The position numbers were made by a program, and so were the translations under genes. The notes below the pieces were generated by a model. The model was given only the letters and a program-made list of their open reading frames with translations, was not told where the DNA came from and searched no databases. 46,613 nt of DNA from Minisyncoccota bacterium (lineage in GTDB: Bacteria > Patescibacteriota > Minisyncoccia > Phycocordibacterales > UBA918). Positions 2,422 through 46,601 of the stretch are shown here, one piece after another; the stretch's first letter is position 1; each line of letters begins with the position of its first letter. The stretch spans positions 1 to 46,613 of the forward strand of contig JAYVBM010000014.1 in the NCBI GenBank assembly GCA_043750495.1, read 5' to 3'.

Positions 2422-2451
2422 AGTATACCCCCATACTAACTTTACTGTCAC
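2422..2451 (-). promoter_or_regulatory. promoter-like GTGACA-N18-TATACT inside the 3' arm of the hairpin element, 10 nt before the mscS ATG
   Basis: minus strand reads GTGACAgtaaagttagtatgggggTATACTtagtgcgtatATG. Confidence 0.4.
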
Positions 2452-2562
2452 TCTGTTTTTCGTTAACTTTTCCACAAACATATAGACTATTATGCACGCG
2501 AACTTTGCACTTGGGTGAAATTTATCCGCAATACAACAGCAAAGTTAGTGCCGGGGGTATAC
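2423..2562 (-). repeat. hairpin element copy 1 (~140 bp, minus orientation)
   Basis: The reverse complement fits the family consensus GTATACCCC..CACTAACTTT..CTGT ... GAAAAACAgAGtGACAgtAAAGTTAGT..GGGGTATAC. The terminal ~26 nt are inverted repeats. Confidence 0.85.
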
Positions 2563-2629: not shown

Positions 2630-2765
2630 TATACCCCCACACCAACTTTCCTGTTGTTTTTGCGACAAAGACAACAGATATCGACCCTGGTAGCGCAGAC
2701 AAAGATACCTGTTTATTAAATACTGAATAAAAGAGAGCGACAGGAAAGTTGGTGTCGGGGTATAC
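2630..2765 (+). repeat. hairpin element copy 2 (~136 bp)
   Basis: tatacccccacaccaactttcctgt...acaggaaagttggtgtcggggtatac. The arms pair with each other and carry compensated changes relative to the other copies. Confidence 0.85.
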
Positions 2766-2772: not shown

Positions 2773-3858
2773 ATGAATATTTTTGTGGAAGGGCTGGTGT
2801 GGGTACTGGTTTCGTACCTATCACTCACGAACTCCCTTGCAACACACATTGAATCCTGGCTACCGGCTGAAGAAGTCGAGATAGAGACTGCTGTTGAAGA
2901 GGAGGTCTCTTTCTTAAACTTACCTACCATCTTTGGGCAATCCATCCCTGACATTCTTCTTCGTAGTAGCGAATATCAACAAGCTGCCCTCGGTGCAGCC
3001 GCCGGACTAACCGGCAGTACCACAGATGACCCGTTTGATGCTCTAGTAAATATTTTTTGCACCTTCAAGACAGATGATTACATTCGCACCACGACCGGTA
3101 CCGGCTTCTTTATTGACCCAGATGGCATCATCATGACCAACGCACACATAGCGCAATTCCTTCTACTGGAAAAAACCGACAGTTTTGGTGACGCTGACTG
3201 CATCGTCAGGAGCGGAAGCCCTGCGGCGCCACGCTATAAGGCTGACCTACTCTATATCCCCCCGACATGGATAAGTGAGAACGCTACTCTAATCAATGAC
3301 TCTGCCCCAATGGGTACAGGTGAACGTGACTACGCCCTCTTGTATGTGAGCGAGGATGTTGACAACAACCCCCTCCCCGCCAGATTCCCCGCATTGTCTT
3401 ATGATGACGAACTACTCCCAACTTCAGTTCGTGAAAGCGAAGTAGTGGCGGCCGGCTACCCAGCGCGAGACCTTATCAAAAACGGAGCCAGTACCGACTT
3501 ACTTGCTAAAAAGGCCACCACGTCTATTTCTGAGCTCTACACCTTTGGTTCAAACTACGCTGACGTCTTTTCCGTAAGAGGGAGTGTCGTGGGGGCGGAA
3601 GGTGCCTCTGGAGGTCCAATCATTGACGACAACGGTAACGTCATCGGAATGATAGCTACCCGAGGAGACGATGATGTTGATGGTGAAGGTAGTTTACGCG
3701 CCATTACACTCTCGCACATCAATCGCACAATTAAGGAAGAGACCGGCTTTACACTTACCGACAACCTCGCTGGCAATCTCCCCTACCGCGCAAAAATATT
3801 TGCAGATACTATGACGCCTTTCTTGATACAAACACTTGAGAAAGGTAAAGACGAATAA
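2773..3858 (+). CDS. membrane-anchored trypsin-like serine protease (S1 family)
   Basis: Hydrophobic N-terminus, then candidate triad motifs TNAHI, DYALLYV and GASGGPIID. I prefer the start at ATG 2773, because the TTG at 2749 lies inside the repeat element. Confidence 0.75.
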   Translation: MNIFVEGLVWVLVSYLSLTNSLATHIESWLPAEEVEIETAVEEEVSFLNLPTIFGQSIPDILLRSSEYQQAALGAAAGLTGSTTDDPFDALVNIFCTFKTDDYIRTTTGTGFFIDPDGIIMTNAHIAQFLLLEKTDSFGDADCIVRSGSPAAPRYKADLLYIPPTWISENATLINDSAPMGTGERDYALLYVSEDVDNNPLPARFPALSYDDELLPTSVRESEVVAAGYPARDLIKNGASTDLLAKKATTSISELYTFGSNYADVFSVRGSVVGAEGASGGPIIDDNGNVIGMIATRGDDDVDGEGSLRAITLSHINRTIKEETGFTLTDNLAGNLPYRAKIFADTMTPFLIQTLEKGKDE

Positions 3859-3860
3859 AG

Positions 3861-3890
3861 AAAAAGGCGCGCCGGATGGCGCGCCTTTTT
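3861..3890. terminator. bidirectional hairpin terminator
   Basis: aaaaaggcgcgcc-ggat-ggcgcgccttttt, a perfect 13-bp stem. Confidence 0.8.
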
Positions 3891-3904
3891 CTTTACATAA
3901 ATTT

Positions 3905-5281
3905 TTATTCAATCGCGCCTGCTTCAGTTGCGGCCTCTGACTCTCCAGGCAATGTCTCTGTTGAGGTGGTAGCGGACTCTTGAGGGAACGCCTGAGTCCC
4001 GACGGCGCTTGAAGTGTTGATGCCGGAAGCATTTACGAGAAGGAGCGCATCACTCAATATCGCATTACTTTCTTTAGCGAGCTTGAGCGCGCTAGCAACT
4101 TCAGTAGTGGAGGCGATTATATTTTTATTGGCAAGAGAAACCTCCAGTGAGTAGTCTACCTTTTCGGCTAACGCTAAAGAAAACTGCGGCATTAAAGTCT
4201 TAAGAATCTCTTGTTTTCGATACACTTCAGACGACACGCGTGAAAGTTCTTGTTTTTGTTCCTCTTCAGTCAAGATAATCGGCACAATCGTTTCAAGTGC
4301 AATCGCGCGATTGGCTTCTATGTCGCTCATGTACACTACTAATTTTTGCGTCTGTTGAAGTACCTCAACTAGTTGTTCACTGGCTGAAATTTCGTTTTCT
4401 CCGCGGAGACTTTTTGATTTTTCTATACTACGATTTACATCTTCAAGCCGCCGATTGAGATCTTGACGTAGCTGATCATCGGGTCCAATTGAAAGAGAGC
4501 TGAGCAATTCATACGCTCGGGTGGTGTTGATTTCTACCCGCGCCATGATTTTGTCGTAGGCTGGGATGCCAGCTGACTCGACCTGGGATTCGTTGGCCGA
4601 GAGCGACTCATTAATTACATCGACAACCATTTGAGCTGGATTGCCAGAAGCGACGTCGTTCATCGCGAGTGCCAAGGTCGTATTTCCCTCTTCTTGAAGT
4701 GACGCTGATTGTAGCTCCAAAGTAGTCGTGAGTTGGATTGAAGCAAGAGTGGCCTGATCAACGTCGCTTTCTCGCATGACATCAATCTCGTGCTGCACGA
4801 TTTCGGTGTGTTCTTTTACGGCAGCAGCAATTTCTGCTTCCACTTCGTTCGTGAGCTTACCTTCATTAGCCAAAAGACGGGCTTCAGAGATTCGGCGGTT
4901 AATGCGCTCGGTCTCCCATTCGACTTTTCCGTATGAAGTTAAAGTCAGAGTACTACGCACCTCTTCACTAAACCGAACTTTCACTGCGTATAGATTGTCG
5001 CCTGGCACGGCCTGCTCGGCCAAAACTGGCACCACGACGAGCAAAAATGCCGCTGCGGCCGCTGACCACTTTAATACTATTGAAAAAGGAATTTGGACGA
5101 TATTATAAGGAGAGAGGGCCGCCATTTGAATGGGACTCTTGACTGACTTCCTTAGTGCTGGGGTCTGCAGTGGGTGATATTCCATATACGAAACAACCCG
5201 CGCGCGCAGTTCACGTCGTTCAGCCGCCTGTAGCTTTACAGTAGTGGCTTTTGTATGAAGTTGTTCGCTAAAGCGTTTCAT
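3905..5281 (-). CDS. putative anti-sigma factor / membrane protein (DUF5667-like)
   Basis: Starts 2 nt after the ECF sigma stop. It has a single TM (AAAAAFLLVVVPVLA) and a long helical extracytoplasmic part. The role is inferred from position. Confidence 0.5.
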   Translation of the reverse strand: MKRFSEQLHTKATTVKLQAAERRELRARVVSYMEYHPLQTPALRKSVKSPIQMAALSPYNIVQIPFSIVLKWSAAAAAFLLVVVPVLAEQAVPGDNLYAVKVRFSEEVRSTLTLTSYGKVEWETERINRRISEARLLANEGKLTNEVEAEIAAAVKEHTEIVQHEIDVMRESDVDQATLASIQLTTTLELQSASLQEEGNTTLALAMNDVASGNPAQMVVDVINESLSANESQVESAGIPAYDKIMARVEINTTRAYELLSSLSIGPDDQLRQDLNRRLEDVNRSIEKSKSLRGENEISASEQLVEVLQQTQKLVVYMSDIEANRAIALETIVPIILTEEEQKQELSRVSSEVYRKQEILKTLMPQFSLALAEKVDYSLEVSLANKNIIASTTEVASALKLAKESNAILSDALLLVNASGINTSSAVGTQAFPQESATTSTETLPGESEAATEAGAIE

Positions 5282-5283
5282 GA

Positions 5284-5916
5284 TTATTTTTTCTTGGTGC
5301 GGTTCTTTTCTGCCTGGACATCTTGACCCTCTATTTTTTGCCGAAGCATTTTAAGGCCACGGTGGATTCGGACAGAAACCACATTCTCAGATTCCTCTAT
5401 AAGTTCACTGATTTCACGCGGACCGAGCTGGTCGACAAAGCGTAAAATGATCACTTCTTTGTACTGATCAGGTAGTTCATCAAGTAATTCAAAGGCCTTT
5501 TTGCCATCGATTGTCGCCGCCAGGGCCTCGGCTGTACTTTCTGACAACTCGTCAAATGAGCCCTCGTCCACTCCATCAAGCTCAAATAAGGCATCCAAGG
5601 ATGACTCTTTTCGGCGCCGATACTCGTCAATTATTAGATTGTTGAGTACTTTATATAAAAATGGCCGAAACGTGTCGATTTCATACCCATTTCGTAGGTA
5701 GGTCCAGACCTTGGTAAAAGTGTCATGGACCAAATCTACCGCTTTCTCTCTGTTACTAACGCGCAAAAACGCATGCCGAAACAAGGCGTCATTGAACTCA
5801 TCAAACGCTTTCAAAAAGCGCTCCTCCTGGTTTTCCTCTATGTCGTGTGTCTTCCTAACTCCCGGCATGTGGAAACCATTATACGCGAAGACGCTGGAAA
5901 AGCCGAAGTCTTTCAT
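5284..5916 (-). CDS. ECF-type RNA polymerase sigma-70 family factor
   Basis: Region 2 (AVDLVHDTFTKVWTYL..FRPFLYKVLNNLIIDEYRRR) and region 4 HTH (PREISELIEESENVVSVRIHRGLKMLR). The start could also be the internal Met at 5868. Confidence 0.85.
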   Translation of the reverse strand: MKDFGFSSVFAYNGFHMPGVRKTHDIEENQEERFLKAFDEFNDALFRHAFLRVSNREKAVDLVHDTFTKVWTYLRNGYEIDTFRPFLYKVLNNLIIDEYRRRKESSLDALFELDGVDEGSFDELSESTAEALAATIDGKKAFELLDELPDQYKEVIILRFVDQLGPREISELIEESENVVSVRIHRGLKMLRQKIEGQDVQAEKNRTKKK

Positions 5917-5987: not shown

Positions 5988-6728
5988 CTATTCAGGCACC
6001 ATATCCCACATAAACAGAAAAAGCTCCTTGTAAGTACTAATTATCTCTTCGTCTTCAATAACGATAGCGGTCATGGGTGTAGATAGCTTCATAATAACCA
6101 TCAAACGTGGAGTGATAGTAATGTCCGAGCTTAGTTTCATGTGTTTTGGTAATACCTTCACCTGATTTCTTAGTAGAGTTTCTTTACTTTTATGCAGGTT
6201 GGCCCTAGCTGAATCTTGAAATATAAGTCGTGTATCAAGTGTAATCCTCTCCCGCCACTTGAGATATTTTTCCTGCAGTCGGGGATCGACATCATGCCAG
6301 CCTAAGTCTCCGCCAATACCGTAACGAAATTCGCCGGATTTGGTTTCGTCCATGAACCGGTCAATGATTGTCTGCATAGCTGGTAGGCCTTCGTAGGTCT
6401 TAATCAATTTTGATTTACCTGATTTTTTAAATAAAACTTCCAAGTCAGGAATGATATCCTGTACTTTTGAAACTTTTTCTTCGACCACTCGCAATAGCTG
6501 TTTAGGGTCTTCTGCGACAAAGACCTTTTTAAAACTAACTTCATCAATCCGAAAAAGTGCTTGCGTCACCAAGGAGTCGACAACGTCATATATGCTCGCC
6601 CGCTTTAAGTTTGTATACTGCGCCAACTTCAAAACAGTGGTTGGACCGAGCACAAGGCCAGCATGGTACACCAACGCTTCTTTCTCAGTTAGACCGCTTT
6701 CAATAAGTTTTTTAATAGTTTTGTTCAT
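5988..6728 (-). CDS. TrmB-family transcriptional regulator
   Basis: N-terminal winged HTH: LTEKEALVYHAGLVLGPTTVLKLAQYTNLKRASIYDVVDSLVTQAL. Confidence 0.7.
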   Translation of the reverse strand: MNKTIKKLIESGLTEKEALVYHAGLVLGPTTVLKLAQYTNLKRASIYDVVDSLVTQALFRIDEVSFKKVFVAEDPKQLLRVVEEKVSKVQDIIPDLEVLFKKSGKSKLIKTYEGLPAMQTIIDRFMDETKSGEFRYGIGGDLGWHDVDPRLQEKYLKWRERITLDTRLIFQDSARANLHKSKETLLRNQVKVLPKHMKLSSDITITPRLMVIMKLSTPMTAIVIEDEEIISTYKELFLFMWDMVPE

Positions 6729-6870
6729 TCTGTCGAGAAAAGTTTCAAAATAGTAGCTCTATTTTCCTTTATTTAATCATGATTTAACATTTCCGTCGAC
6801 ATTTTGGACAATCTAGCAAGTATTCTCTAAAGTATTACTAGATTAGCTCTTTGTTAGAAAGGAAACGCAG

Positions 6871-7332
6871 GTGACCACAATTACATTACCCCTAAAGATG
6901 TGCGGCGCTCTCATGAGAGTAGTTGACTCCGAAAAACGAGCTTTGGCATTCATGAAACATGAGTTATCTCTTAAACCAGAAGACGATTTCCCTGACCTCA
7001 TTGGGATTTCTTATCCTTGTCACAAAGACTACAACTTCATGATGGGCCCAGCGATGTGGCAGGACTGCAGCATCGAAGGAGAACACGGGCATCTCCTTCT
7101 TCAGTGCGACGACGGTACAGCTCTTTTGCCCCATACCATACGTTGCCAAGCTGATGTTGAACAAGTGATTGCTGATCTAGTTAAAGCAAAAACGCTTGGT
7201 TTTGGTAACGAGCCGCAAGCAAGTGCCCTGGCATTTGTTCTTGGAAACGACCCTGTTACCAAAAAATTACCTGTTGGGTCGGAATACCCTATCGAAGAGC
7301 ATGATTTAAGGCAACTTGGTTGGTGGTTGTAA
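6871..7332 (+). CDS. hypothetical protein
   Basis: 153-aa ORF with a GTG start after aggaaa. No recognisable motif. Confidence 0.4.
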   Translation: MTTITLPLKMCGALMRVVDSEKRALAFMKHELSLKPEDDFPDLIGISYPCHKDYNFMMGPAMWQDCSIEGEHGHLLLQCDDGTALLPHTIRCQADVEQVIADLVKAKTLGFGNEPQASALAFVLGNDPVTKKLPVGSEYPIEEHDLRQLGWWL

Positions 7333-9090: not shown

Positions 9091-9152
9091 TATTAATCCT
9101 GAAATATAAGAAATAAAAGTGAACTTTAATTTCTTATATTTCAGGATTAATA
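9091..9152. repeat. perfect 23-24-bp inverted repeat with a 14-nt loop
   Basis: attaatcctgaaatataagaaat (9092-9114) and atttcttatatttcaggattaat (9129-9151). Confidence 0.9.
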
Positions 9153-9281: not shown

Positions 9282-9593
9282 TTACTGCCATTTAGCCACA
9301 ATCAAGTCGATCTCTTGTGCCATCGCAATATCATAACTAGTCACTTTATCACCAGCGCTGTGAGTACAAAGTGAAAAAGCCAACTGATCATAAGTATTAG
9401 TCAGTCTAGGGTGATGATTCATACTTGCTGCCACTTTGAAAGTCTCGTTCATGACAGCCACGGCTGTTGCAAAATCGGCTAACTTAAAAGACGACTTTAG
9501 ATGATTTTCTTCAAGTTGCCATTCTTGATGAGCCGTCAAAAAGTCCTGCGTCTCTTCTGCTGTAGATACTTTATATCCGTTGTCTTTTCCCAT
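9282..9593 (-). CDS. pterin-4a-carbinolamine dehydratase (PCD/DCoH family)
   Basis: FKLADFATAVAVMNETFKVAASMNHHPRLTNTYDQLAFSLCTHSAG, typical of the PCD family. Confidence 0.8.
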   Translation of the reverse strand: MGKDNGYKVSTAEETQDFLTAHQEWQLEENHLKSSFKLADFATAVAVMNETFKVAASMNHHPRLTNTYDQLAFSLCTHSAGDKVTSYDIAMAQEIDLIVAKWQ

Positions 9594-9663: not shown

Positions 9664-10113
9664 CTAGCTGATAATAATGTTTGGAATATACTTTACTGTA
9701 GCATATTTCTCACGTGGCACAATTCTGACCGCTATTACATCGATTTGCCAATCATCCTTGCAATTATGTTCCAAAAGCCAGCTTTCAAGGGTACGATTTA
9801 GTTTTAATATCTTGCTGGAGTGAACATTTTCTTCTGGTCGCCAAGTTCCATATGAAACGGCTTTCTCTAGATCAGTCTTAGTTTCATATGAAACTGTTTT
9901 TACCTCAACAAAGTGAATAATGACCTTATTTATAATAGTTTCACGTGACACTACATCAATTTCACCCCATTTTTTAAGGTAATTTTTGTCCAGGATGGTG
10001 TGGCCTAGCTTTTTCAGGTAATTGGCCGCGATTTCCTCACCATATCCACCAACTCTATTCTTAGCTCCTTTTTTATTAGCCTGTTTCATATGGCACGCTT
10101 CTGCGTGTTTCAT
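9664..10113 (-). CDS. yraN: YraN-family (UPF0102) endonuclease-like protein
   Basis: GEEIAANYLKKLGHTILDKNY..GEIDVV...VEVK signature. A second possible start is at 10089. Confidence 0.75.
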   Translation of the reverse strand: MKHAEACHMKQANKKGAKNRVGGYGEEIAANYLKKLGHTILDKNYLKKWGEIDVVSRETIINKVIIHFVEVKTVSYETKTDLEKAVSYGTWRPEENVHSSKILKLNRTLESWLLEHNCKDDWQIDVIAVRIVPREKYATVKYIPNIIIS

Positions 10114-10288: not shown

Positions 10289-10630
10289 TTAGTGGAGTAG
10301 TGCCACGTAAAACGTTGGGGGGAGTGGGTCAGCGAGCCAGTATTTCTCGGCTACGAGACGACTGGGACCTTCTCTGCGAAGTGCCATTACGTATTTATTT
10401 CCATTTTCGTGCTCAAGTACCTTGCCACAAAAAAGAAGTGCCACGCATTCCCCGTTGTCTGGTGGATCTGTGAGGATGGCTGGAGCTTTTTCGGGTCTGA
10501 CCAGCAAGCTGTTCATTTTTCGGTGACCGGCATGCCGTTTCGAAGCTGCTTTTCTAAGCATCTGCTCTACAGTTATTTGGGCGAACCTTTGAGGTTCGTC
10601 CTGATAAAGAACGATTTCCGTGGTGTTCAT
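10289..10630 (-). CDS. hypothetical protein
   Basis: 113-aa ORF followed by a strong hairpin. No recognisable motif. Confidence 0.4.
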   Translation of the reverse strand: MNTTEIVLYQDEPQRFAQITVEQMLRKAASKRHAGHRKMNSLLVRPEKAPAILTDPPDNGECVALLFCGKVLEHENGNKYVMALRREGPSRLVAEKYWLADPLPPTFYVALLH

Positions 10631-11052: not shown

Positions 11053-11724
11053 TTATTGAACTGTCAGCTCTTTCTGCATCAGCTCAATCCAACGGATAAG
11101 CTTGTGCTTCAAAACTGTGCTGCCGATTATAGTATTTCCTACGCCATGATGCAATGTCTTATGTTTGGGTTTGCCTTTTATGATTTGATTCTTGTAAAAC
11201 TGAGCGTAGGGCAGGGTAGTGGACTTATGCCACTTTTTCATACAAGCCTCCTCGTTATGGTCAGTATAGAGAAACAGCCAAAATTTGATTTTATTCTTAG
11301 GCACCCCCAGATACTCCACTGCAAAGGAAATAAACGTCCTCTGGGCCGGTAGGCGGGCTGTAGTGAGACGTATAATGCGCTGGTCTGCCATATCGCCAAG
11401 CGAAGCATAAGTTATCAGTCCAGCAATAAACCGTGGGTTCGTTTTGTAGTGCTTGAACTCCACTTCAGCCGATCGTTTGATTTCTTGATACCGATGCGCC
11501 CGTTCTTTAGTCCGGGTTTTACTCATGAGCTTCAATCGCTTAGCGTTTTCTTGTCCAGCCCGGCGTTTGTTCTGTTTGGTAATTTCTGCCGAAATAGCAT
11601 TATTTTTCAACCACTTTGATACGGTGGACTTCGATACTTCGCATATCTTTGCTATCTCTTCCAGGGTAAAGCCGCGCGTGCGAAACTGCAACGCTTGCTT
11701 AAATTTCTCTTCATTTCGAACCAT
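11053..11724 (-). CDS. HTH-domain protein of unknown function
   Basis: N-terminal HTH (FTLEEIAKICEVSKSTVSKWLKN), then a basic helical region and an uncharacterised C-terminal domain. The stop is 2 nt from tRNA-Gly. Confidence 0.55.
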   Translation of the reverse strand: MVRNEEKFKQALQFRTRGFTLEEIAKICEVSKSTVSKWLKNNAISAEITKQNKRRAGQENAKRLKLMSKTRTKERAHRYQEIKRSAEVEFKHYKTNPRFIAGLITYASLGDMADQRIIRLTTARLPAQRTFISFAVEYLGVPKNKIKFWLFLYTDHNEEACMKKWHKSTTLPYAQFYKNQIIKGKPKHKTLHHGVGNTIIGSTVLKHKLIRWIELMQKELTVQ

Positions 11725-13989: not shown

Positions 13990-14183
13990 TGTTTGATCGA
14001 AGGGAATTAGTGCTGCTGGTATCGGCGTTGCTAACCATCATTTTGTGTCTCAGTCCGCGATTCCGTCGCTCAATGATAGAAAAAGTTCCGCTACTGCGGC
14101 TGACGACCGCGGCGATACTCATCTACACCGCAGCGGGCGTTGTCGTTCAACTCTTGTTTCCACAGGAGATTACGTTATGGTAA
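13986..14183 (+). CDS. hypothetical small membrane protein
   Basis: 65 aa with two hydrophobic helices. ATGA start/stop overlap with the preceding ORF. Confidence 0.35.
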   Translation: MMFDRRELVLLVSALLTIILCLSPRFRRSMIEKVPLLRLTTAAILIYTAAGVVVQLLFPQEITLW

Positions 14184-14971
14184 GCAAGCCCACACTAACC
14201 ATTTCCGCTCGGGACATTATCCAGAAGACCTGGATTCCTGAAGGGTCGGTTGAGTACAACATTTTTAAGCTCAAGACACTTGAAAATGATGACTTGGTGC
14301 GAATCATCAAGAAGCATTTGTCCATCGGTCCAAACGACTACGTGCTTGATGTCGGGGGACGTGACGGTAATGTGGCGTTTCGGGTACAAAATGCCGACCA
14401 CGTTGATATCGTCGACCCCGACCCGTTTATCGAGCCGCTTCAAAAGCCCGACAACTTCTGGCGCGATAAGGTGCAGCATGTGCAGTTTCCTTCCGACCGG
14501 AAGTACAAGCTTATTATCTGCTGTCACGTCATGGGGTACTTGGGTTTGCAGCGGACACAGAAGGAGGTAGCCGAGAAACTGGTTGATTTACTCGAGAAAG
14601 ATGGCGTCTTGTTGCTCTTTTACAACACCAACCATGGCTACATGGCGGAGTTGCTGGAATATTCAAGACACATTCAATTCGGCCACTACGACTACTTCGA
14701 TGTTGATATCCTGGAGGAATACAAAACCCCAGACTACGCCATCAAACAGCTCGACCGCTCGTACACGCTCGACTACGGAGACTTTATGGCGCTGGCGCGT
14801 ATGTGCTGGTTCCTCTTTGGGGCGATGGAGATTGATGTCGACAAGGTAGCGGAGAAGTTCCTACCAAAGTTGACTTACGATCTCCTCGAACCAACCTTCG
14901 AAATCGACGAGCGAATGACACTGATTATCAAGCGTCAAAGCGAAATCTTGTTCCCGACGTTAACAAGGTAA
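14177..14971 (+). CDS. class I SAM-dependent methyltransferase
   Basis: Motif I VLDVGGRDGNVAF. AGGAG lies 8 nt before ATG 14177. Overlaps the preceding ORF by 7 nt. Confidence 0.7.
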   Translation: MVSKPTLTISARDIIQKTWIPEGSVEYNIFKLKTLENDDLVRIIKKHLSIGPNDYVLDVGGRDGNVAFRVQNADHVDIVDPDPFIEPLQKPDNFWRDKVQHVQFPSDRKYKLIICCHVMGYLGLQRTQKEVAEKLVDLLEKDGVLLLFYNTNHGYMAELLEYSRHIQFGHYDYFDVDILEEYKTPDYAIKQLDRSYTLDYGDFMALARMCWFLFGAMEIDVDKVAEKFLPKLTYDLLEPTFEIDERMTLIIKRQSEILFPTLTR

Positions 14972-14978
14972 AGCTCAA

Positions 14979-15014
14979 GGGCCGGTTTGTGTAAGCAAAC
15001 CGGCCCTTTCTTTG
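14979..15014 (+). terminator. rho-independent terminator
   Basis: gggccggtttg-tgtaag-caaaccggccc then tttctttg. Confidence 0.8.
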
Positions 15015-15166
15015 TGGTCACGAATCACTAAGTATATTTGTTCGTCTTCGACTCCAAATCTACTAAGTGTTCTCGACCCCGGCTCGACTGTTTTTCTCCC
15101 TAGGAAGGGGAGAAAAGCATGGCTGCGCCTTGCACAGAGACATAAAAGCAACGCAGGTTGCTTTCT

Positions 15167-15203
15167 AAAAGAAATGACTGCCTTAAAGCCAGTCATTTCT
15201 TTT
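15167..15203 (-). terminator. hairpin terminator downstream of tRNA-Arg
   Basis: aaaagaaatgactg...cagtcatttctttt. Confidence 0.65.
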
Positions 15204-15210
15204 ACCTCTG

Positions 15211-15282
15211 TGCACCCACCAGGACTCGAACCTAGGACGACTGTTCCGAAGACAGTAATGATATCCACTTCACCATGGGTGC
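15211..15282 (-). tRNA. tRNA-Arg (anticodon UCG), no encoded CCA
   Basis: Minus strand GCACCCATGGTGAAGTGGATATCATTACTGTCTTCGGAACAGTCGTCCTAGGTTCGAGTCCTGGTGGGTGCA forms a cloverleaf with anticodon loop CTTCGGA. Confidence 0.9.
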
Positions 15283-15325
15283 ATTGTGTGTGCCGAAGTG
15301 TACTACTGATTCTTATAAGATTCAA

Positions 15326-15613
15326 CTAAAACTGATTGGGCCAAAGGCGGGCTTGGTGGCGCACGGCCAGTACTTGAATCTCATTGTTTGAAATACGATA
15401 TACTACAACATACTGTGAACGAGGTACGATAAGTTCTCTTGTTCCATCAACACGGCCGGTGCGACCACTTAACGGGGCAGTCTGTAGTTGCTTAGTAGTG
15501 AAGTGAGCAATGTCTTTAACGACACTTGGGCCGGCGGGTGACTGTTGCTCTAGTAGATAGTGAAGAATGCCTTCGAAGTCTTTCTGGGCTTGTGTTTGCC
15601 AACGAATTATCAT
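15326..15613 (-). CDS. ParE/RelE-family type II toxin
   Basis: 95 aa, ...GRVDGTRELIVPRSQYVVVYRISNNEIQVLAVRHQAR, typical of ParE/RelE. Lies 11 nt downstream of an RHH gene. Confidence 0.8.
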   Translation of the reverse strand: MIIRWQTQAQKDFEGILHYLLEQQSPAGPSVVKDIAHFTTKQLQTAPLSGRTGRVDGTRELIVPRSQYVVVYRISNNEIQVLAVRHQARLWPNQF

Positions 15614-18012: not shown

Positions 18013-18071
18013 AAAAAAGGCCTGAGGAGTCGTGCGACAAGTGTGCTTGTCATCCGACTTCTCAGGCCTTT
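18013..18071. terminator. long imperfect hairpin flanked by A6 and T runs (strongest as a minus-strand terminator)
   Basis: ggcctgaggagtcg..gacaag-tgtg-cttgtc..cgacttctcaggcc: 14-bp stem, internal loop, then a 6-bp stem. Confidence 0.65.
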
Positions 18072-20571: not shown

Positions 20572-21105
20572 TTATTGTGTACTCTCTGTCTCTTCAGCTA
20601 GGAAGGACTCAATCGAATCAAAGGACGTGATCTGGCCGGTAGATACGCCATAGAGAACTGGGTAGATCCGTTCGGCACTCTGACAAAGTCGAAACATGTT
20701 TCTAAGCAGGATGCTACTATGATCCATCTTGCGCATGGTTTCGACATCATCAACTGCAGTATCGATTGTGGAAGTCAGACAAATACCGATATTAGCTTCA
20801 CTATATTGAAAGGGAATAATCGCCCCCCAAAGAATTTCATACGAAAGAGTATTACACAGTAGTAACGCATCATCATATTCAATAGCAGCAAAATTCATGC
20901 GGCTGCTGTCTGGGTTACAAAACCACAGACATATTTTTACAGCCTGATTGTTGGGTTCCGGCTCGAAGGCCTGCATGATGATTTCAACACCAAACCCTGC
21001 TTCGATTGCCTGAAATGTGAGATGGTCTTCTGCAACTTGGGGTGAAGTACAGAAATTTCTTTCGATGGCTTTGGCAATAAGCTGATGGAACTCGAGCACA
21101 GACAT
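20572..21105 (-). CDS. hypothetical protein (possibly YbjN/secretion-chaperone-like fold)
   Basis: 177-aa acidic ORF followed by the hairpin aataagccacc...ggtggcttatt. The family call is weak. Confidence 0.35.
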   Translation of the reverse strand: MSVLEFHQLIAKAIERNFCTSPQVAEDHLTFQAIEAGFGVEIIMQAFEPEPNNQAVKICLWFCNPDSSRMNFAAIEYDDALLLCNTLSYEILWGAIIPFQYSEANIGICLTSTIDTAVDDVETMRKMDHSSILLRNMFRLCQSAERIYPVLYGVSTGQITSFDSIESFLAEETESTQ

Positions 21106-25978: not shown

Positions 25979-26018
25979 AAAAACGCGACGTGGGCTTAAG
26001 CCCACGTCGCGTTTTTTT
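25979..26018 (+). terminator. strong rho-independent terminator
   Basis: aaaaacgcgacgtgggc-ttaa-gcccacgtcgcgttttttt, a 17-bp stem. Confidence 0.85.
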
Positions 26019-28887: not shown

Positions 28888-28915
28888 GAAAAAGCGGCAC
28901 CCTAGTGCCGCTTTT
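28888..28915. terminator. bidirectional hairpin terminator
   Basis: aaaaagcggcac-ccta-gtgccgcttttt. Confidence 0.8.
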
Positions 28916-29829
28916 TATTTCCCGTGGAATTTCTTGTGAACCTCCCGCAGGTGCTTGTCGGTGACGTGGGTGTACACCTGGGTCGTACCGATATGCGCAT
29001 GGCCCAGAAGTGCTTGCACAGAGCGAAGGTCGGCACCGTTACTCAAGAGGTCAATAGCGAAGCTGTGGCGCAAAACATGGGGAGTCACTTTGCGAGTAAT
29101 GCCGGCTGTCGCCGCGTAATGTTTCATAAGTCGCTGTACTGCTCGCGGTTGAAGACGCGCATCGCCACCATCATTAACTTTGCGTCCATGCCGGACAAAT
29201 AGCGCGTCGTCTAAGTCTTTACGATTTTTCAAATAGTCTCGCAAGCTGTCTTTGGCAATCTCAGACAAAAAAACTACTCGTACCTTATCGCCCTTGCCAC
29301 GAACTGAGAACTCGTCGCGAGTGAGATCAACGTCGTCGATAGATAGACCGCATAGTTCAGAAATACGGAGGCCAGTTGAGAAGAACAGCTCCAAAATTGC
29401 CTTGTCTCGTTTTCCTTCGAGTGTCTTTTGATCTGGTGCTTTAAGTAGACGTTTGAGTTCGGTGGGAGAAATCAGATCGAGCGACCGCTCGGGAACCTTC
29501 GCTAACTCGATACGCTCTGGAGACAGTGCTTCTATGCCACGCTTGCGTAAAAACTTAAGAAAAGCCCGCAAAGCAATCAAGTAGTAGTTCTGCGTCCGGC
29601 GCTTCATCGGTTCCACCCGGCCACCCATTTTTGTCCCCGCTTGCCGATTGAGATGGAGGCGAAATTCTCGGACCTGTTCCTCAGTGAGTTCCGTTACTGT
29701 CTTTACCTTAACAAAGGCAAAAAAACGCTCCAAGTAGCGGTCGTAGTTCTCGACTGTCTTGATACTTCGACCTCTCTCAATCTCAAGATACTCCAAGAAC
29801 TGCCGTTTCAAGGCCACCAAGTCTCTCAT
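28915..29829 (-). CDS. tyrosine site-specific recombinase (XerC/XerD family)
   Basis: SAM-like N-domain, then the R..HxxR..Y catalytic pattern (GLRISEL, HVLRHSFA, LGHAHIGTTQVYTHV). Confidence 0.85.
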   Translation of the reverse strand: MRDLVALKRQFLEYLEIERGRSIKTVENYDRYLERFFAFVKVKTVTELTEEQVREFRLHLNRQAGTKMGGRVEPMKRRTQNYYLIALRAFLKFLRKRGIEALSPERIELAKVPERSLDLISPTELKRLLKAPDQKTLEGKRDKAILELFFSTGLRISELCGLSIDDVDLTRDEFSVRGKGDKVRVVFLSEIAKDSLRDYLKNRKDLDDALFVRHGRKVNDGGDARLQPRAVQRLMKHYAATAGITRKVTPHVLRHSFAIDLLSNGADLRSVQALLGHAHIGTTQVYTHVTDKHLREVHKKFHGK

Positions 29830-36514: not shown

Positions 36515-36651
36515 GTATATCCCGACACTAACTTTAGTGTAGTTTTTGCTAGCGCCCATCATTCTTGTTCCAAACAACTCAGACGAAAAGCGGACTAGGT
36601 AGTGAAAAGAGTGAAAAACACTAGCGACACGAAAGTTAGTGTGGGGTATAC
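36515..36651 (+). repeat. hairpin element copy 3 (~137 bp)
   Basis: gtatatcccgacactaactttagtgtagtttttgctagc ... gaaaaacactagcgacacgaaagttagtgtggggtatac. Confidence 0.85.
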
Positions 36652-36652
36652 T
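36624..36652 (+). promoter_or_regulatory. promoter-like GCGACA-N17-TATACT in the 3' arm of copy 3, 8 nt before ATG 36661
   Basis: GCGACAcgaaagttagtgtggggTATACTcaccctatATG. Confidence 0.4.
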
Positions 36653-42983: not shown

Positions 42984-43744
42984 CATTTGATCGAGTCTCG
43001 CTGCAGTATGGCAACACGCCAATCCTGCGCGACATTTCATTTACACTTGAACCCGGTACGAGGCTTGCTGTAGTAGGCAGTAGCGGTGCCGGAAAGAGTT
43101 CGCTATCGCGACTACTCATGCGAGCAACGGACCCTACAAGCGGCACGATATGCATCAACGAAGTAGCGTACCCGAAATATCAACTCCAGTCGGTACTGCG
43201 ACACATCGGTGTCGTACTACAAAAGACCGAGATGATTAGTGGAACCGTGCGTGAGAACATCACGTTCGGCATTCACCTTACAGATATCCTTGGTGTAACC
43301 GACGCAGACATATGGGACGTACTTGATGCGATCTCACCGTCGTTTCGGCGTCGTTTCGGCGAACGCGGTCTTGATACCCTAGTGGGAAAACAAGGCATGC
43401 AACTCTCTGGCGGCGAACAGCAACGATTGTGTGTGGCTAGGGCGCTCCTCAAAAAACCCGAGATGTTGATTATTGACGAAGCGACGGCATCGCTCGATTC
43501 GCAGACCGAACAAATTGTTCAACGTGGTATCGATATGGCGCTGGCGCAAGATATTTCAGCACTCGTGGTAGCCCACCGTTTTTCAACACTGCGCAACTGT
43601 AATAAGTTTGTGGTGCTGAAGCGGCTAGTTGATTGTCGCCAAGACGAGTCTCAGATAGAACTTATTTGTGACTCGGCGACTGAAGCTTATGATCGTTCTT
43701 TGATCTTTCGGACTCTCTCAGACTTGCAAGGGTTTCGACCTTAG
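42974..43744 (+). CDS. ABC transporter ATP-binding subunit
   Basis: Walker A GSSGAGKSS, signature LSGGEQQR, Walker B LIIDEATASLD. Confidence 0.9.
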   Translation: MRVAFDRVSLQYGNTPILRDISFTLEPGTRLAVVGSSGAGKSSLSRLLMRATDPTSGTICINEVAYPKYQLQSVLRHIGVVLQKTEMISGTVRENITFGIHLTDILGVTDADIWDVLDAISPSFRRRFGERGLDTLVGKQGMQLSGGEQQRLCVARALLKKPEMLIIDEATASLDSQTEQIVQRGIDMALAQDISALVVAHRFSTLRNCNKFVVLKRLVDCRQDESQIELICDSATEAYDRSLIFRTLSDLQGFRP

Positions 43745-43753
43745 TTCTTTTTA

Positions 43754-43787
43754 AAAAGGGCCGGCACATACGTGTGTCGGCCCTTTT
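43754..43787 (+). terminator. rho-independent terminator
   Basis: aaaagggccggcaca-tacg-tgtgtcggcccttttc. Confidence 0.75.
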
Positions 43788-43808
43788 CTCGTGCCAAAAT
43801 TCTCTATG

Positions 43809-43947
43809 GTATACCCCGACACTAACTTTCATGTAGTTTTTGCGAGCATTCATCATTGTGACCGATAGGTGGAACTATAAGTAGCATGTTGAACTGTTTT
43901 AATGTGGAGAAAAACTTGAGCGACAAGAAAGTTAGTGCGGGGTATAC
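43809..43947 (+). repeat. hairpin element copy 4 (~139 bp)
   Basis: gtataccccgacactaactttcatgtagtttttgcgagc ... gaaaaacttgagcgacaagaaagttagtgcggggtatac. Confidence 0.85.
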
Positions 43948-44079
43948 CCCGACACTAACTTTCTTGTAGTTTTTGCTAGCCTCTAGTGTTAATCCTACAA
44001 ACAGACTTTCGCAACATGCTGACTAGGCAATGAATAGCGTGTAAAACACTAGCGACAAGAAAGTTAGTGCGGGGTATAG
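43942..44079 (+). repeat. hairpin element copy 5 (~138 bp), sharing GTATAC with copy 4
   Basis: gtataccccgacactaactttcttgtagtttttgctagc ... taaaacactagcgacaagaaagttagtgcggggtatag. Confidence 0.85.
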
Positions 44080-44080
44080 T
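44052..44080 (+). promoter_or_regulatory. promoter-like GCGACA-N17-TATAGT in the 3' arm of copy 5, 8 nt before ATG 44089
   Basis: GCGACAagaaagttagtgcggggTATAGTgtccgcacATG. Confidence 0.4.
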
Positions 44081-44088
44081 GTCCGCAC

Positions 44089-46047
44089 ATGCAGGAAACA
44101 ACTCCTTACTTGGTAGGCTTAAACGACCAACAAAAGGCCGCCGTACTTCACATCGACGGACCACTGATGGTCTTAGCGGGAGCTGGTTCTGGCAAGACCC
44201 GCGTCATCACCCACCGTATCGTCCACATCATTCACCAAGGCGTAGTGCCACACAACATTCTAGCCGTAACCTTTACCAATAAAGCCGCCAAAGAAATGCG
44301 CGAACGAGTTGGCGCGCTGGTACATAAATACCCACCCTCAGACCGAGCAGTAGTTGATAGTTTGCCACTGGTTACCACGTTCCATTCACTTGGAGTACGC
44401 TTATTGCGAGAGTTTCACGACGCCATGGGACTCAGGCGGCACTTCACTATTTATGACCGCGCCGATAGTATCCGCGCAGTGAAGCAAGCAATTGTTAAAG
44501 CCGACTACGATCCAAAAGAGTTTGAACCAAAGCGTATTCTAGGCATGATTTCGCGGGCCAAGGGTGACGCCATGACACAACTCGCTTACCTAGACGCCGC
44601 TGGCTCATACCCCGAGCAAGTCGCCGCCGCGGTGTGGGACAAATACGAAGCGATTTTGCAAGCAGAACAAGCGCTTGATTTTGACGACCTTCTCGCCAAG
44701 ACACTGCGGCTCCTTGAAAACAATCAGAACATCCGCGATACCCTCCAAAACCGGTTTAAATATATTCACGTTGACGAATATCAAGACACCAACCGCGTAC
44801 AGTTTTCTATTGTGGAGCTTTTGTGTGGCGAGGCTCAGAACATCTGTGTGGTAGGAGATATCGACCAAAACATTTACTCCTGGCGCGGAGCCGACATTAA
44901 AAATGTCTTGCAGTTTGAGCGACACTTCCCCCGTTCGACTACAGTGCTCCTTGAGGAAAATTACCGCTCTACCCAGACCATCATCGCTGCTTCAAACGAC
45001 ATAATCAAAAAAAACCAAAACCGGGTTGAAAAAAATGTTTTCACCAACAACCAAGAAGGCGAGAAGATTACTCTTTACGCCGCCATGACGGGTTACGACG
45101 AAGCGGAGTACATTGCCCTGACCGCCAAATCACTTATCGAGGGTGGCGCTGACCCAACATCTATCGCTGTGCTTTACCGCACCAACTTTCAGTCACGCTC
45201 GCTCGAAGAAGCCTTTCTTAATTTCGAAGTACCGTACCAGCTACTTGGAACCAAATTCTTTGAACGCAAGGAAGTCAAAGACGTGCTTTCGTATTTGCGT
45301 CTGGCCCTCAACCCAGGCAGCAACGCCGACCTTGCCCGCGTCATCAACGAACCAGCTCGTGGCATTGGCAAAGTTACTCTGCTCAAAATCATTGAAGGCA
45401 AGCGCGCTGACTTAAACAAAGGTGCGCAAGAAAAACTCGCTTCGTTTGACGCCATCATGACAGATATCGAAAAATGCGCAGCCGAAAAACCTTTATCGGA
45501 AACAATAAAATACATCATGGCTCGCAGTGGTATCGAAGGTATGTACCGTGAAGAAAAAACTGAAGAAGCCCTGGAGCGTCTGGAGAACCTGCGCGAATTG
45601 GTAACACTAGCCTCACGATACAACGAACTGCCGCCGCTTGAGGCAGTCGAACAACTGCTAGAGAGTGCCGCCCTACAAAGTGACCAGGATGAAATCAAAG
45701 ATAAGGAGGAGCTCAATGCAGTTCGGTTGATGACGGTGCACGCAGCCAAAGGTCTGGAGTTTGCGTATGTCTTCATCGCGGGACTGGAAGAAGGCCTCTT
45801 CCCGCACGAACGACTGGATGACGGCAAGACAGATAAAGAGGAAGAACGTCGTCTCTTCTATGTGGCTCTTACCCGCGCTGAGAAAAAAATCTTCCTCACC
45901 TACGCTCACATGCGCACTATCTTTGGCAGCCAACGCATAAATATACCTTCTTCGTTCCTAAACGATATCAGTAAAGAACACGTTGAGACCGGCAACCCTA
46001 TAGGTGGCCACGACTCCAGCTACGAAACCACCATCTACCTAGATTAA
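44089..46047 (+). CDS. pcrA: UvrD/PcrA-family ATP-dependent DNA helicase
   Basis: Motif I AGAGSGKT, Ia TFTNKAA, II VDEYQDTN, III GDIDQNIYSWRGA, V/VI TVHAAKGLEF ... YVALTRA. Confidence 0.9.
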   Translation: MQETTPYLVGLNDQQKAAVLHIDGPLMVLAGAGSGKTRVITHRIVHIIHQGVVPHNILAVTFTNKAAKEMRERVGALVHKYPPSDRAVVDSLPLVTTFHSLGVRLLREFHDAMGLRRHFTIYDRADSIRAVKQAIVKADYDPKEFEPKRILGMISRAKGDAMTQLAYLDAAGSYPEQVAAAVWDKYEAILQAEQALDFDDLLAKTLRLLENNQNIRDTLQNRFKYIHVDEYQDTNRVQFSIVELLCGEAQNICVVGDIDQNIYSWRGADIKNVLQFERHFPRSTTVLLEENYRSTQTIIAASNDIIKKNQNRVEKNVFTNNQEGEKITLYAAMTGYDEAEYIALTAKSLIEGGADPTSIAVLYRTNFQSRSLEEAFLNFEVPYQLLGTKFFERKEVKDVLSYLRLALNPGSNADLARVINEPARGIGKVTLLKIIEGKRADLNKGAQEKLASFDAIMTDIEKCAAEKPLSETIKYIMARSGIEGMYREEKTEEALERLENLRELVTLASRYNELPPLEAVEQLLESAALQSDQDEIKDKEELNAVRLMTVHAAKGLEFAYVFIAGLEEGLFPHERLDDGKTDKEEERRLFYVALTRAEKKIFLTYAHMRTIFGSQRINIPSSFLNDISKEHVETGNPIGGHDSSYETTIYLD

Positions 46048-46058
46048 CCAAAACTATT

Positions 46059-46082
46059 CTACCTATCATACATGATAGGTAG
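46059..46082. promoter_or_regulatory. 24-bp palindrome, candidate operator 1
   Basis: CTACCTATCATacATGATAGGTAG. Confidence 0.55.
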
Positions 46083-46108
46083 ACTCCCCATCATCCCACT
46101 CAAAACTT

Positions 46109-46130
46109 TACCTATCATGTATGATAGGTA
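46109..46130. promoter_or_regulatory. 22-bp palindrome, candidate operator 2, overlapping a -10-like TATGAT 8 nt before ATG 46134
   Basis: TACCTATCATgtATGATAGGTA. Confidence 0.55.
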
Positions 46131-46133
46131 GAT

Positions 46134-46574
46134 ATGAAAAGAGAAATTAGTAAAATTAAAGAGAAAGAAAAGAAGGCCACACTTGAAGCCCTATACGAAT
46201 CGGCTAGTCGTATCAAAGGTGACGACGCAGTTCGCATATTTATCAGCGACATACTAACGGAAAGTGAACGAATCATTGTTGGTCGCAGGTTGTTAATTGC
46301 GAATCTAATTTTGACTGGTCAGACTTACTCAGAAGTTCACAATCAACTTGGTGTGAGTCCAAACACTTTCAGTCGGATCAGACAATGGTTGACTGGCCGA
46401 TTTCCGGACTATGACAAAACTCTTAAAGAAACCGCACCGACTCCCAAAAAGACCAAAGTTATCTACACCAGGGTGGCGCCTTTTTCATTTGCCCATCTAA
46501 AAAAGAAGTACCCCATGCACTACTTACTTTTTACTCTTTCCGAAAAAACGATCGCCAACTTGAAATCGAAGTAA
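46134..46574 (+). CDS. TrpR-like (YerC/YecD-family) DNA-binding protein
   Basis: ILTESERIIVGRRLLIANLILTGQTYSEVHNQLGVSPNTFSRIRQWL resembles the Trp-repressor-like YerC/YecD fold. Confidence 0.65.
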   Translation: MKREISKIKEKEKKATLEALYESASRIKGDDAVRIFISDILTESERIIVGRRLLIANLILTGQTYSEVHNQLGVSPNTFSRIRQWLTGRFPDYDKTLKETAPTPKKTKVIYTRVAPFSFAHLKKKYPMHYLLFTLSEKTIANLKSK

Positions 46575-46579
46575 TACTT

Positions 46580-46601
46580 TACCTATCACGTATGATAGGT
46601 A
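46580..46601. promoter_or_regulatory. 22-bp palindrome copy 3 (one arm mismatch), 5 nt after the stop codon
   Basis: TACCTATCACgtATGATAGGTA. Confidence 0.5.

Follow-up and report, generated by a model that had tools for sequence, protein, structure and literature searches.

The sequence at positions 44052-44091 of a 46,613-nt stretch of Minisyncoccota DNA (contig JAYVBM010000014.1; the window), directly in front of a UvrD/PcrA-type helicase gene, is with a probability of roughly 80% the gene-proximal end of a non-autonomous palindromic element that resembles a MITE (a miniature transposable element with inverted repeats), targets TATA and rebuilds a hybrid promoter where it inserts. The segment consists of GCGACA, a 17-nt spacer, TATAGT and gtccgcac (8 nt), followed by ATG, and forms the right end of c5, one of five inverted-repeat copies of ~136 nt present in the window. 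Comparison of filled and empty alleles shows integration into TATA, which is apparently duplicated on both sides of the insert. The elements display four features of bacterial MITEs: they are small and non-coding, have inverted-repeat ends, carry a target duplication relative to empty sites, and occur as dispersed, polymorphic copies. The copies, with limits given from TATA to TATA, and the parts of the c5 junction are as follows.

2424..2561, minus strand: copy c1, 138 nt, GTGACA arm towards an MscS-like gene (minus strand, ATG 2411)
2630..2764, plus strand: copy c2, 135 nt, GCGACA arm towards a trypsin-like (HtrA-like) peptidase gene, ATG 2773
36516..36650, plus strand: copy c3, 135 nt, before a DksA/TraR-type zinc-finger gene (ATG 36661), which is followed by ComM/YifB
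43810..43946, plus strand: copy c4, 137 nt, upstream partner of a tandem pair
43943..44078, plus strand: copy c5, 136 nt, gene-proximal partner of the tandem pair, before the UvrD/PcrA-type helicase gene
43807..43813, plus strand: tggTATA, the putative displaced upstream half of the original extended -10 element, made of TGn and the left target TATA; the flank equals the empty allele ctatggTATAgt
44041-44047, plus strand: A-tract GTAAAAC of c5, ahead of GCGACA
44052..44057, plus strand: -35-like hexamer GCGACA in the right arm of c5, with a 17-nt spacer to TATAGT
44075..44080, plus strand: -10 hexamer TATAGT, composed of the duplicated target TATA (44075-44078) and host GT
44089..46047, plus strand: UvrD/PcrA-type helicase gene, 652 aa (Pfam UvrD-helicase, UvrD_C), ATG 8 nt past the -10 hexamer, putative leaderless mRNA

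The evidence that carries this reading comes from the orthologous sites of relatives, for which contigs were fetched by orthologues of the UvrD and peptidase genes at graded identity. The UvrD orthologues are 80-95% identical and mostly 650-653 aa long, the closest annotated ones having 652 aa. At the UvrD site the window reads ctatggTATA[c4]TATA[c5]TATAgtgtccgcacATG; in L154, the relative with 95% identical UvrD, the site is ccctatggTATAgtgtccgcacATG / ctatggTATAgtgtccgcacATG, with both c4 and c5 missing. It is also empty in L155/L156 (93%) and L157 (89%), and L154, L155 and L157 already have the TATAGT of the UvrD promoter in their empty alleles. The DksA-like site is filled in the window and in L154, where the orthologous copies of c3 are 93% identical, and empty in L155/L156 (gtgaggTATActcattgtgtATG) and L157. 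At the divergent MscS/peptidase pair, c1 and c2 are both missing in L159 (91%), L160 (87%) and L161 (81%). The empty c1 site reads ...AAGTATACCG... in L159, or ...tagTATACCG... in the comparison of L159 and L160, while the empty c2 site is gtgaTATACTgtgactATG in L159 and atgaTATACTgtgtctATG in L160, with the common form ...tgaTATACTgtg(a/t)ctATG. The more distant L161 has the boxes tagTATACag at the c1 site and tgtTATAATcgtcgtATG, a TATAAT, at the c2 site. Every empty allele thus holds one TATA inside TGnTATAnT (TATACT or TATAGT, and TATAAT only in L161) at an equal or almost equal distance from the same ATG, and this single-TATA box identifies element plus one TATA as a precise insertion. The initial annotation had offered, as one of two readings, a MITE that duplicates TATA upon insertion into -10 boxes, and had proposed a comparison with empty sites in related genomes; this comparison finds a simple TATAnT box at the insertion point of all four window sites, in agreement with the MITE model.

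The same count of TATA, one in empty and two in filled alleles, holds at the four window sites and in five comparisons of a shorter form of the element. These short-form pairs have the same boundaries and come from distant genomes: L057 versus window 28915-29829, L038 versus L014, L029/L069 versus L120, L045/L063 versus L074, and L119 versus L026. In one example, L038 is filled (atatttgtTATA[...]TATACTttctctcATG) and L014 is empty (aactttgtTATACTagccacATG). We considered a duplication of TA only, as in a MITE derived from IS630/Tc1-mariner, and rejected it: given symmetric ends, the predicted empty allele is ..ggTAgt.., the one found is ..ggTATAgt.., and the c4/c5 junction fits only a 4-bp duplication.

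The distribution over relatives indicates, by parsimony, that the insertions are gains in the lineage of the window. Copy c3 appears to date from an ancestor common to the window and L154, and c1, c2, c4 and c5 later in the window's own lineage; these four of the five copies are missing in relatives with 81-95% identical proteins. Copy density differs accordingly among the genomes, with 5 copies in 46.6 kb of the window, 1 in 32 kb of L154 and L159 taken together, and 0 in ~110 kb of L155-L161.

All five copies are bracketed by TATA on both flanks, and c4 and c5 stand in tandem with exactly one common TATA at 43943-43946 (junction GGGGTATACCCC), just as had been described from the window alone. 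Another tandem pair with one common TATA is found at locus L047. The copies end in TATA-CCCCGACACTAACTTTC...GAAAGTTAGTGYGGGG-TATA, in full form TATA-CCCC(C/G)ACAC(T/C)AACTTT...AAAGTT(A/G)GTG(Y)(C/G)GGGG-TATA, and the arm pattern has 10 matches in the window versus 0.26 expected from shuffles. The core arms comprise 20 nt, CCCC(C/G)ACAC(T/C)AACTTT, and extend to ~40 nt in the long form of the window; overall, the inverted-repeat arms measure 20-42 nt with 83-96% complementarity, and the predicted fold has a terminal stem of 24-25 bp. Elements are 135-138 nt long in the window and 43-143 nt elsewhere, fit no open reading frame (ORF) and are non-coding. Pairwise comparison of the five copies gives 66-93% identity at the ends and 44-61% in the interiors, which are thus unrelated, while the length of 135-138 nt is kept. 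Since the interiors of c4 and c5 are unrelated, the two are independent insertions and not one duplication. The source pool of the window copies is heterogeneous.

The predicted stems are highly stable (z = -4 to -11), which would suit a hairpin acting at the RNA level, as a terminator or as a 3' stabiliser of the upstream transcript. There is, however, no T-run past the stem, and a terminator scan makes no call at the elements; a GC-rich inverted repeat with a T-run, which we read as an intrinsic terminator although the scan does not call it, already precedes c4 (~43752-43790), and c1 and c2 lie between divergent genes. Mismatches between the arms are G.T in 47 cases and A.C in 47, without strand-specific bias, and therefore point to a palindrome maintained in DNA rather than to an RNA structure. 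Rfam 15 has no family for the element: only three tRNAs in the window pass the gathering threshold, and within 43700-44200 nothing is better than E = 0.03, all matches being far below gathering scores. We give an RNA-level role next to no credence.

At the gene-proximal ends, a consensus scan flags exactly the -35-like hexamers and the 17-18-nt spacing that the initial annotation had named, with sigma70-type matches of 9-10/12 at all four. They are GTGACA-18-TATACT at 2451-2422 on the minus strand for c1 (gap of 10 nt to ATG 2411), GCGACA-18-TATACT at 2737-2766 for c2 (6 nt to ATG 2773), GCGACA-17-TATACT at 36624-36652 for c3 (8 nt to ATG 36661) and GCGACA-17-TATAGT at 44052-44080 for c5 (8 nt to ATG 44089). 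The start-codon distances of 6, 8, 8 and 10 nt likewise come out as first read, and a gap of 6-10 nt leaves no space for a Shine-Dalgarno sequence. All five copies have the motif xxGACA in their gene-proximal arm, and the distal arm, read as its reverse complement, has AACA or TACA there. An A-tract accompanies the motif in every copy; the exact heptamer GAAAAAC, which had been ascribed to all copies, is limited to c3 and c4, with GTAAAAC in c5, CGAAAAAC in c1 and AATAAAAG in c2. Because the A-tract is mirrored by a T-tract in the opposite arm, it belongs to the extended inverted repeat.

These observations could be taken to mean that the element is a self-contained portable promoter, a complete outward sigma70-type -35/-10 installed before genes that then become leaderless. 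In each of the four gene-proximal copies the -35/-10 pair finishes at the terminus of the element, and the xxGACA arm faces the gene at 4/4 sites (chance ~1/16 for that direction); the element is polar, with the better arm towards the gene. Yet TGnTATA[C/G]T precedes the same ATG at an unchanged distance in the empty alleles, the element does not include the final two bases of the hexamer, genes with leaderless geometry occur throughout the genome, and c4 has the same arm but abuts another element and no gene. A complete portable promoter is, in our view, very improbable. Of the initial reading of the 3' arm as an outward promoter, one part stands, in that the upstream half is possibly contributed by the element; TATA, nT and the 6-10-nt gap to ATG are present in empty alleles and hence are host features regenerated by the duplication.

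The geometry is indeed common in the window outside the elements. Many element-free genes have TGnTATAAT or TGnTATACT 5-8 nt ahead of ATG and no Shine-Dalgarno sequence, for example:

97; 9282-9593 (-); 9664-10113 (-); 12405 (-); 19491; 22355; 25224 (-); 28915-29829 (-): element-free genes with an extended -10

A minority of genes have GGAGG leaders (10289-10630 (-), 20572-21105 (-) and 29925). As many element-free genes share both the extended -10 and the leaderless geometry, this arrangement is the normal promoter type of the genome and not a property of the element. To judge by these promoter sequences, it implies widespread leaderless mRNAs in this lineage of the candidate phyla radiation (CPR). 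The gene content of the window is typical for CPR bacteria, and its proteins are most similar to those of metagenome-assembled genomes (MAGs) labelled Patescibacteria, Parcubacteria, Pacebacteria, Nomurabacteria and Kaiserbacteria.

The usable TATAs in these CPR/Patescibacteria genomes appear to be the -10 boxes of extended -10, putatively leaderless promoters of the form TGnTATAnT-N6-8-ATG. Integration splits such a promoter into TGnTATA on one side of the element and TATAnT-N6-8-ATG on the other, and the duplication regenerates the -10 hexamer at the original distance from the start codon. We propose that TGn and any other upstream signals are thereby shifted by 45-137 bp. With TGnTATACC at the left junction, the final T that a -10 hexamer needs is missing, and this junction is expected to be dead. 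The right junction retains a G at -14, provided by the terminal G-run, and the long form also offers xxGACA at a distance of 17-18 nt and, further upstream, the A-tract; in short forms, a loop-borne TTG would take the place of xxGACA as a replacement for the displaced signals. Among the short-form matches listed, the loop has TTG at the -35 position in 26/43 when read in the promoter direction versus 13/43 in the reverse (p = 0.009). Consensus match and arm orientation suggest that, of a hybrid promoter, the element probably supplies no more than the upstream half, namely the G at -14, the -35-like xxGACA and the A-tract. The gene would then be driven by this element-borne upstream half together with the host -10, and insertions at -10 boxes would be tolerated and kept because the hybrid promoter drives the gene. 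The promoter model and the target-site model, first presented as alternatives, are accordingly not exclusive: a TATA-targeting MITE that rebuilds a hybrid promoter combines both.

Outside the window, the family was traced by one-arm scans of genome and metagenome collections with subsequent pairing of arms, part of the single-arm matches being due to chance. The scan of the genome collection gave 30 loci, with a few dozen chance matches estimated in 596 Gb, and its matches were accepted as real only with a paired arm or in a CPR context. Pairing of arms yields at least 73 non-redundant elements, and the counts that follow refer to the elements among the matches listed. Most are perfect hairpins of 44-50 nt, TATACCCCCACAC(C/T)AACTTT-loop-AAAGTT(G/A)GTGTGGGGGTATA, and the others measure 75-143 nt. 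Such hairpin elements are found in MAGs named Saccharibacteria, Kaiserbacteria, Nomurabacteria and Patescibacteria. A TATAnT flank is present on at least one side of 68/73 elements, and 60 elements can be oriented: ATG lies 5-10 nt past TATAnT in 45/60 on one side versus 4/60 on the other (Fisher p = 4e-15). The gene-side flank is TATAcT in 48, TATAgT in 9 and TATAaT in 3, and the flanks are the only asymmetry of these elements.

The flank logo of the 60 elements reads T (53%), G (86%), G or C, then TATA-CCCC...GGGG-TATA, followed by C (80%) or G (15%) and T. The far flank, TGnTATA, in which position -2 is G in 86% and position -3 is T in 53%, appears to be the displaced extended -10. TATA is followed by C or G in 95% and preceded by G or C in 79%, which suggests a palindromic target preference, S-TATA-S; such a preference would explain why TATACT and TATAGT are hit and mostly not the commoner TATAAT boxes. 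A cut-and-ligate model at GTATAC restriction sites was discarded, the preceding base being G in only 51% and the following base C in 80%.

Two sets of loci deserve separate mention. In L083, positions 3510-3760 encode a 62-aa N-terminal fragment of a UvrD-like protein, 73-77% identical to those of L029 and L069; it is preceded by ...gcttgctGGGGTATACTctccgcATG, apparently a decayed right arm, so that arms seem to erode once the gene is lost. L012, L014 and L024 (JBLHGD010000010, ...006 and ...053) are contigs of a 'Candidatus Azotimanducaceae' (Gammaproteobacteria) MAG with a CPR-type hairpin element, and are probably mis-binned CPR DNA. One of these contigs has a peptidase gene 46% identical to that of the window, with a weaker MscS-like match (30%) ~0.3 kb past its 3' end.

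The concentration of copies at -10 boxes may reflect targeting or survival. Once its elements are removed, the window contains 177 occurrences of TATA, of which 61 are intergenic and ~15 have -10 geometry, and all four independent insertion sites are among these ~15. Selective loss of intragenic insertions accounts for part of the bias, but insertion into any other intergenic TATA ought to do no more harm. One possibility is a target that extends beyond TATA (S-TATA-S, perhaps with promoter context); the other is that only insertions that keep expression are retained.

A different route to the same pattern is a hairpin related to repetitive extragenic palindromes (REPs) and REPINs, which are REP doublets, or to IS200/IS605 insertion sequences (ISs). 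It would be moved as single-stranded DNA by a tyrosine HUH enzyme, either a REP-associated tyrosine transposase (RAYT) or TnpA, and inserted 3' of TATA without true duplication; the target might be the lagging-strand template or the -10 region melted in open promoter complexes. The short form consists of one perfect hairpin of 20 bp, no transposase flanked by element ends is found in the window or the fetched loci, the arms are conserved across lineages as expected with a conserved host-encoded enzyme, and the preference for -10 boxes, 4/4 sites among ~15 of 61 intergenic TATAs, exceeds mere avoidance of genes. Against this, Pfam finds no HUH domain among the window ORFs, neither a Y1/HUH gene nor a RAYT is seen near the copies, REPs lie mostly downstream of genes and have a 5' GTAG, neither of which holds here, the ends of IS200/IS605 are not mutual inverted repeats, and the loop occurs in both orientations (L061 versus L105/L133). 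We consider such an origin unlikely.

A bolder extension, which we regard as unlikely, is that the family is a repeat homing to promoters across the whole CPR radiation, that a conserved enzyme or DNA-binding protein recognises it, and that the cell uses its insertions for promoter rewiring. One conceivable recogniser is an HUH-type protein specific for single strands, which would act where the -10 is melted in open complexes. If so, -35-independent TGnTATAAT promoters would be turned into promoters dependent on GGGG-TATAcT plus xxGACA or TTG, and stress and repair genes, among them UvrD, HtrA-like, DksA-like and MscS, could come under a different sigma factor or regulator; sigmaB/SigF-like recognition of GGGTAT would be a speculative variant of this.

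The identity of these genes also raises the question of whether the palindrome is primarily the operator of a conserved CPR DNA-binding regulator of a stress or DNA-repair regulon, with its spread being secondary. The window targets, MscS, an HtrA-like peptidase, a DksA-like protein and UvrD, would fit; the HtrA-like peptidase carries the element both in the window and in L014 (46% identity), UvrD-like helicases carry it in L029 and L069 (50% identity), the UvrD of the window being only 28-29% identical to these, and conservation is far higher in the arms than in the proteins encoded next to them. All loci were chosen for carrying the element, and this biases orthologue sharing upward. The spacing of half-sites ranges over 2-103 nt, which also speaks against an SOS/LexA operator, the downstream genes are highly diverse, and strains whose proteins are 89-95% identical differ in whether they carry the element. 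An operator as the primary function is quite unlikely; secondary use of the element by the cell may nevertheless occur.

Several points weigh against a TATA-targeting MITE. The arms are near-identical across lineages whose proteins are only 44-65% identical, which hints at selection on the arms beyond selfish spread, and a recent MITE burst would not usually leave unrelated interiors at a conserved length. As TATA reads identically in reverse complement, a true 4-bp duplication and the insertion of a TATA-ending element 3' of TATA are inseparable from sequence alone. No mobilising enzyme came to light in the DNA covered: as the initial annotation had noted, the window has no transposase, none being detected by Pfam among its ~49 ORFs, and 165 loci (~1.4 Mb) contain neither an autonomous copy nor a transposase bounded by such ends. 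Pairs of arms separated by 300-4000 nt proved to be separate elements, weak chance matches or, judged by ORF translations, part of a eukaryotic-looking contig (L049, L056). Viral contigs gave four chance-like single-arm matches and no element-flanked transposase. Two proteins of the window are worth recording here. A 223-aa helix-turn-helix protein (11053-11724 (-)) matches IS630-HTH at 20.4 bits, with a cut-off of 21.3, and has no catalytic domain; its orthologues in element-free relatives (L159 9311-9979, L161 16600-17268) make it an unlikely mobiliser. A Xer-type recombinase is also among the Pfam matches of the window ORFs.

The window and its relatives have further features beside the elements. 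Three copies of a perfect palindrome of 22-24 nt, TACCTATCATGTATGATAGGTA, at 46053-46132 and 46573-46601, surround a TrpR/HTH_23-like gene (46134-46574), two just upstream and one just downstream of it, and look like its operator sites. An extracytoplasmic function (ECF)-type sigma factor (5284-5916 (-)) and a DUF5667 protein, possibly its anti-sigma factor (3905-5281 (-)), adjoin and converge on the HtrA-like peptidase gene (2773-3858); the arrangement is kept in L159, L160 and L161 and may be an envelope-stress module. Compared with the syntenic L159, the window has two small strain-specific islands, one with a TrmB-like regulator and a 153-aa ORF (5988-7332), the other with a methyltransferase and a ParE toxin beside tRNA-Arg (14045-15613). 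Near-perfect intergenic palindromes are present at 9091-9152, 3856-3895, 15166-15204, 18016-18071 and 25979-26016; one has 30-nt AT-rich arms and lies beside tRNA-Pro, and several are GC-cored hairpins of 18-26 nt flanked by A- and T-runs, resembling bidirectional terminators. In L154-L157, a type IV secretion-like cluster (TrbL_3, PrgI, TraC-like, TraG P-loop) is located a few kb downstream of UvrD, for example at 9632-15396 in L156; the window stops short of the matching region.

The genomes of CPR/Patescibacteria are tiny and streamlined, experimental genetics hardly exists for these bacteria, and little is known of their promoters and mobile DNA. The family described here is best read as a bacterial MITE with an unusual, promoter-regenerating choice of target and is widespread in CPR bacteria: a miniature element specialised in the tetranucleotide that defines their extended -10 promoters, which it regenerates on insertion. 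A full-text literature search finds no description of the arm sequence, a 13-mer of which occurs in one unrelated paper, and none of the papers listed by a search on CPR and MITE contains the MITE phrase. The family shows a very wide use of extended -10, putatively leaderless promoters in these genomes, and in at least one lineage it has been active recently, with four gains since a relative with 91-95% identical orthologous proteins. Its filled and empty alleles form natural promoter pairs for testing what CPR promoters need, the 20-nt arms can serve as a sequence tag for CPR contigs in bins, and the element is a defined substrate in the search for an unknown transposition or DNA-binding activity. 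If the insertions alter regulation, they would constitute a mechanism of promoter turnover in reduced genomes.

Several known systems share parts of this description. REPs, bacterial interspersed mosaic elements (BIMEs) and REPINs are likewise short palindromes outside genes that occur in many copies, contain no transposase and have a hairpin conserved within a lineage. REPs are situated mainly at 3' ends or between convergent genes, have a conserved GTAG and flank a RAYT gene; the element of the window sits at the -10 box between TATA flanks, has no GTAG, and no RAYT is seen among the window ORFs or near its copies. Hybrid promoters are formed by ISs such as IS1, IS2, IS10, IS256, ISAba1 and ISEcp1, where an outward -35 in the IS end is joined to a resident -10. 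In the same manner, the end of our element places a -35-like hexamer 17-18 bp from a -10 at or just past the junction, but it belongs to a non-coding element of 45-137 bp, and the -10 is the duplicated target itself, rebuilt at every insertion.

The layout TATA-CCCC...GGGG-TATA, with its 4-bp palindromic A/T duplication, agrees with that of piggyBac and IS1380. IS1380 elements have CC ends and a 4-5-bp duplication. In piggyBac, a TTAA target is duplicated and the termini are CCC...GGG (PMC10140906), and IS1380 transposases are described as distant prokaryotic relatives of piggyBac (PMC10140906; PMC7351741). The target here is TATA and not TTAA, and we take the resemblance as a lead, not as membership. 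No piggyBac/IS1380-like transposase turned up in the fetched DNA, in which no dedicated search for one was made.

By analogy, the closest functional counterpart is the Correia element of Neisseria, known as CREE (Correia repeat enclosed element) or NEMIS (Neisseria miniature insertion sequence). CREEs duplicate TA and not TATA, carry sites for integration host factor (IHF) and RNase III, also disrupt coding sequences and are not known to be confined to leaderless -10 boxes. They are MITEs of ~100-155 bp with TATA-initial inverted-repeat ends and a target duplication, many copies lie 5' of genes, promoters can be generated at either end, and the mobilising enzyme is not known (PMC2649163). Their end consensus, with a conserved core, is TATAG[CT]GGATTAAC(A/T)... 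in Neisseria (PMC2649163). The ends described here, TATACCCCCACAC... or TATACCCC(C/G)ACAC(T/C)AACTTT, do not follow this consensus, and the taxon, the duplication and the strict location at -10 boxes are all unlike those of CREE. In its MITE-like build, its TATA-initial ends, its target duplication and its position 5' of genes, the element of the window nevertheless resembles CREE.

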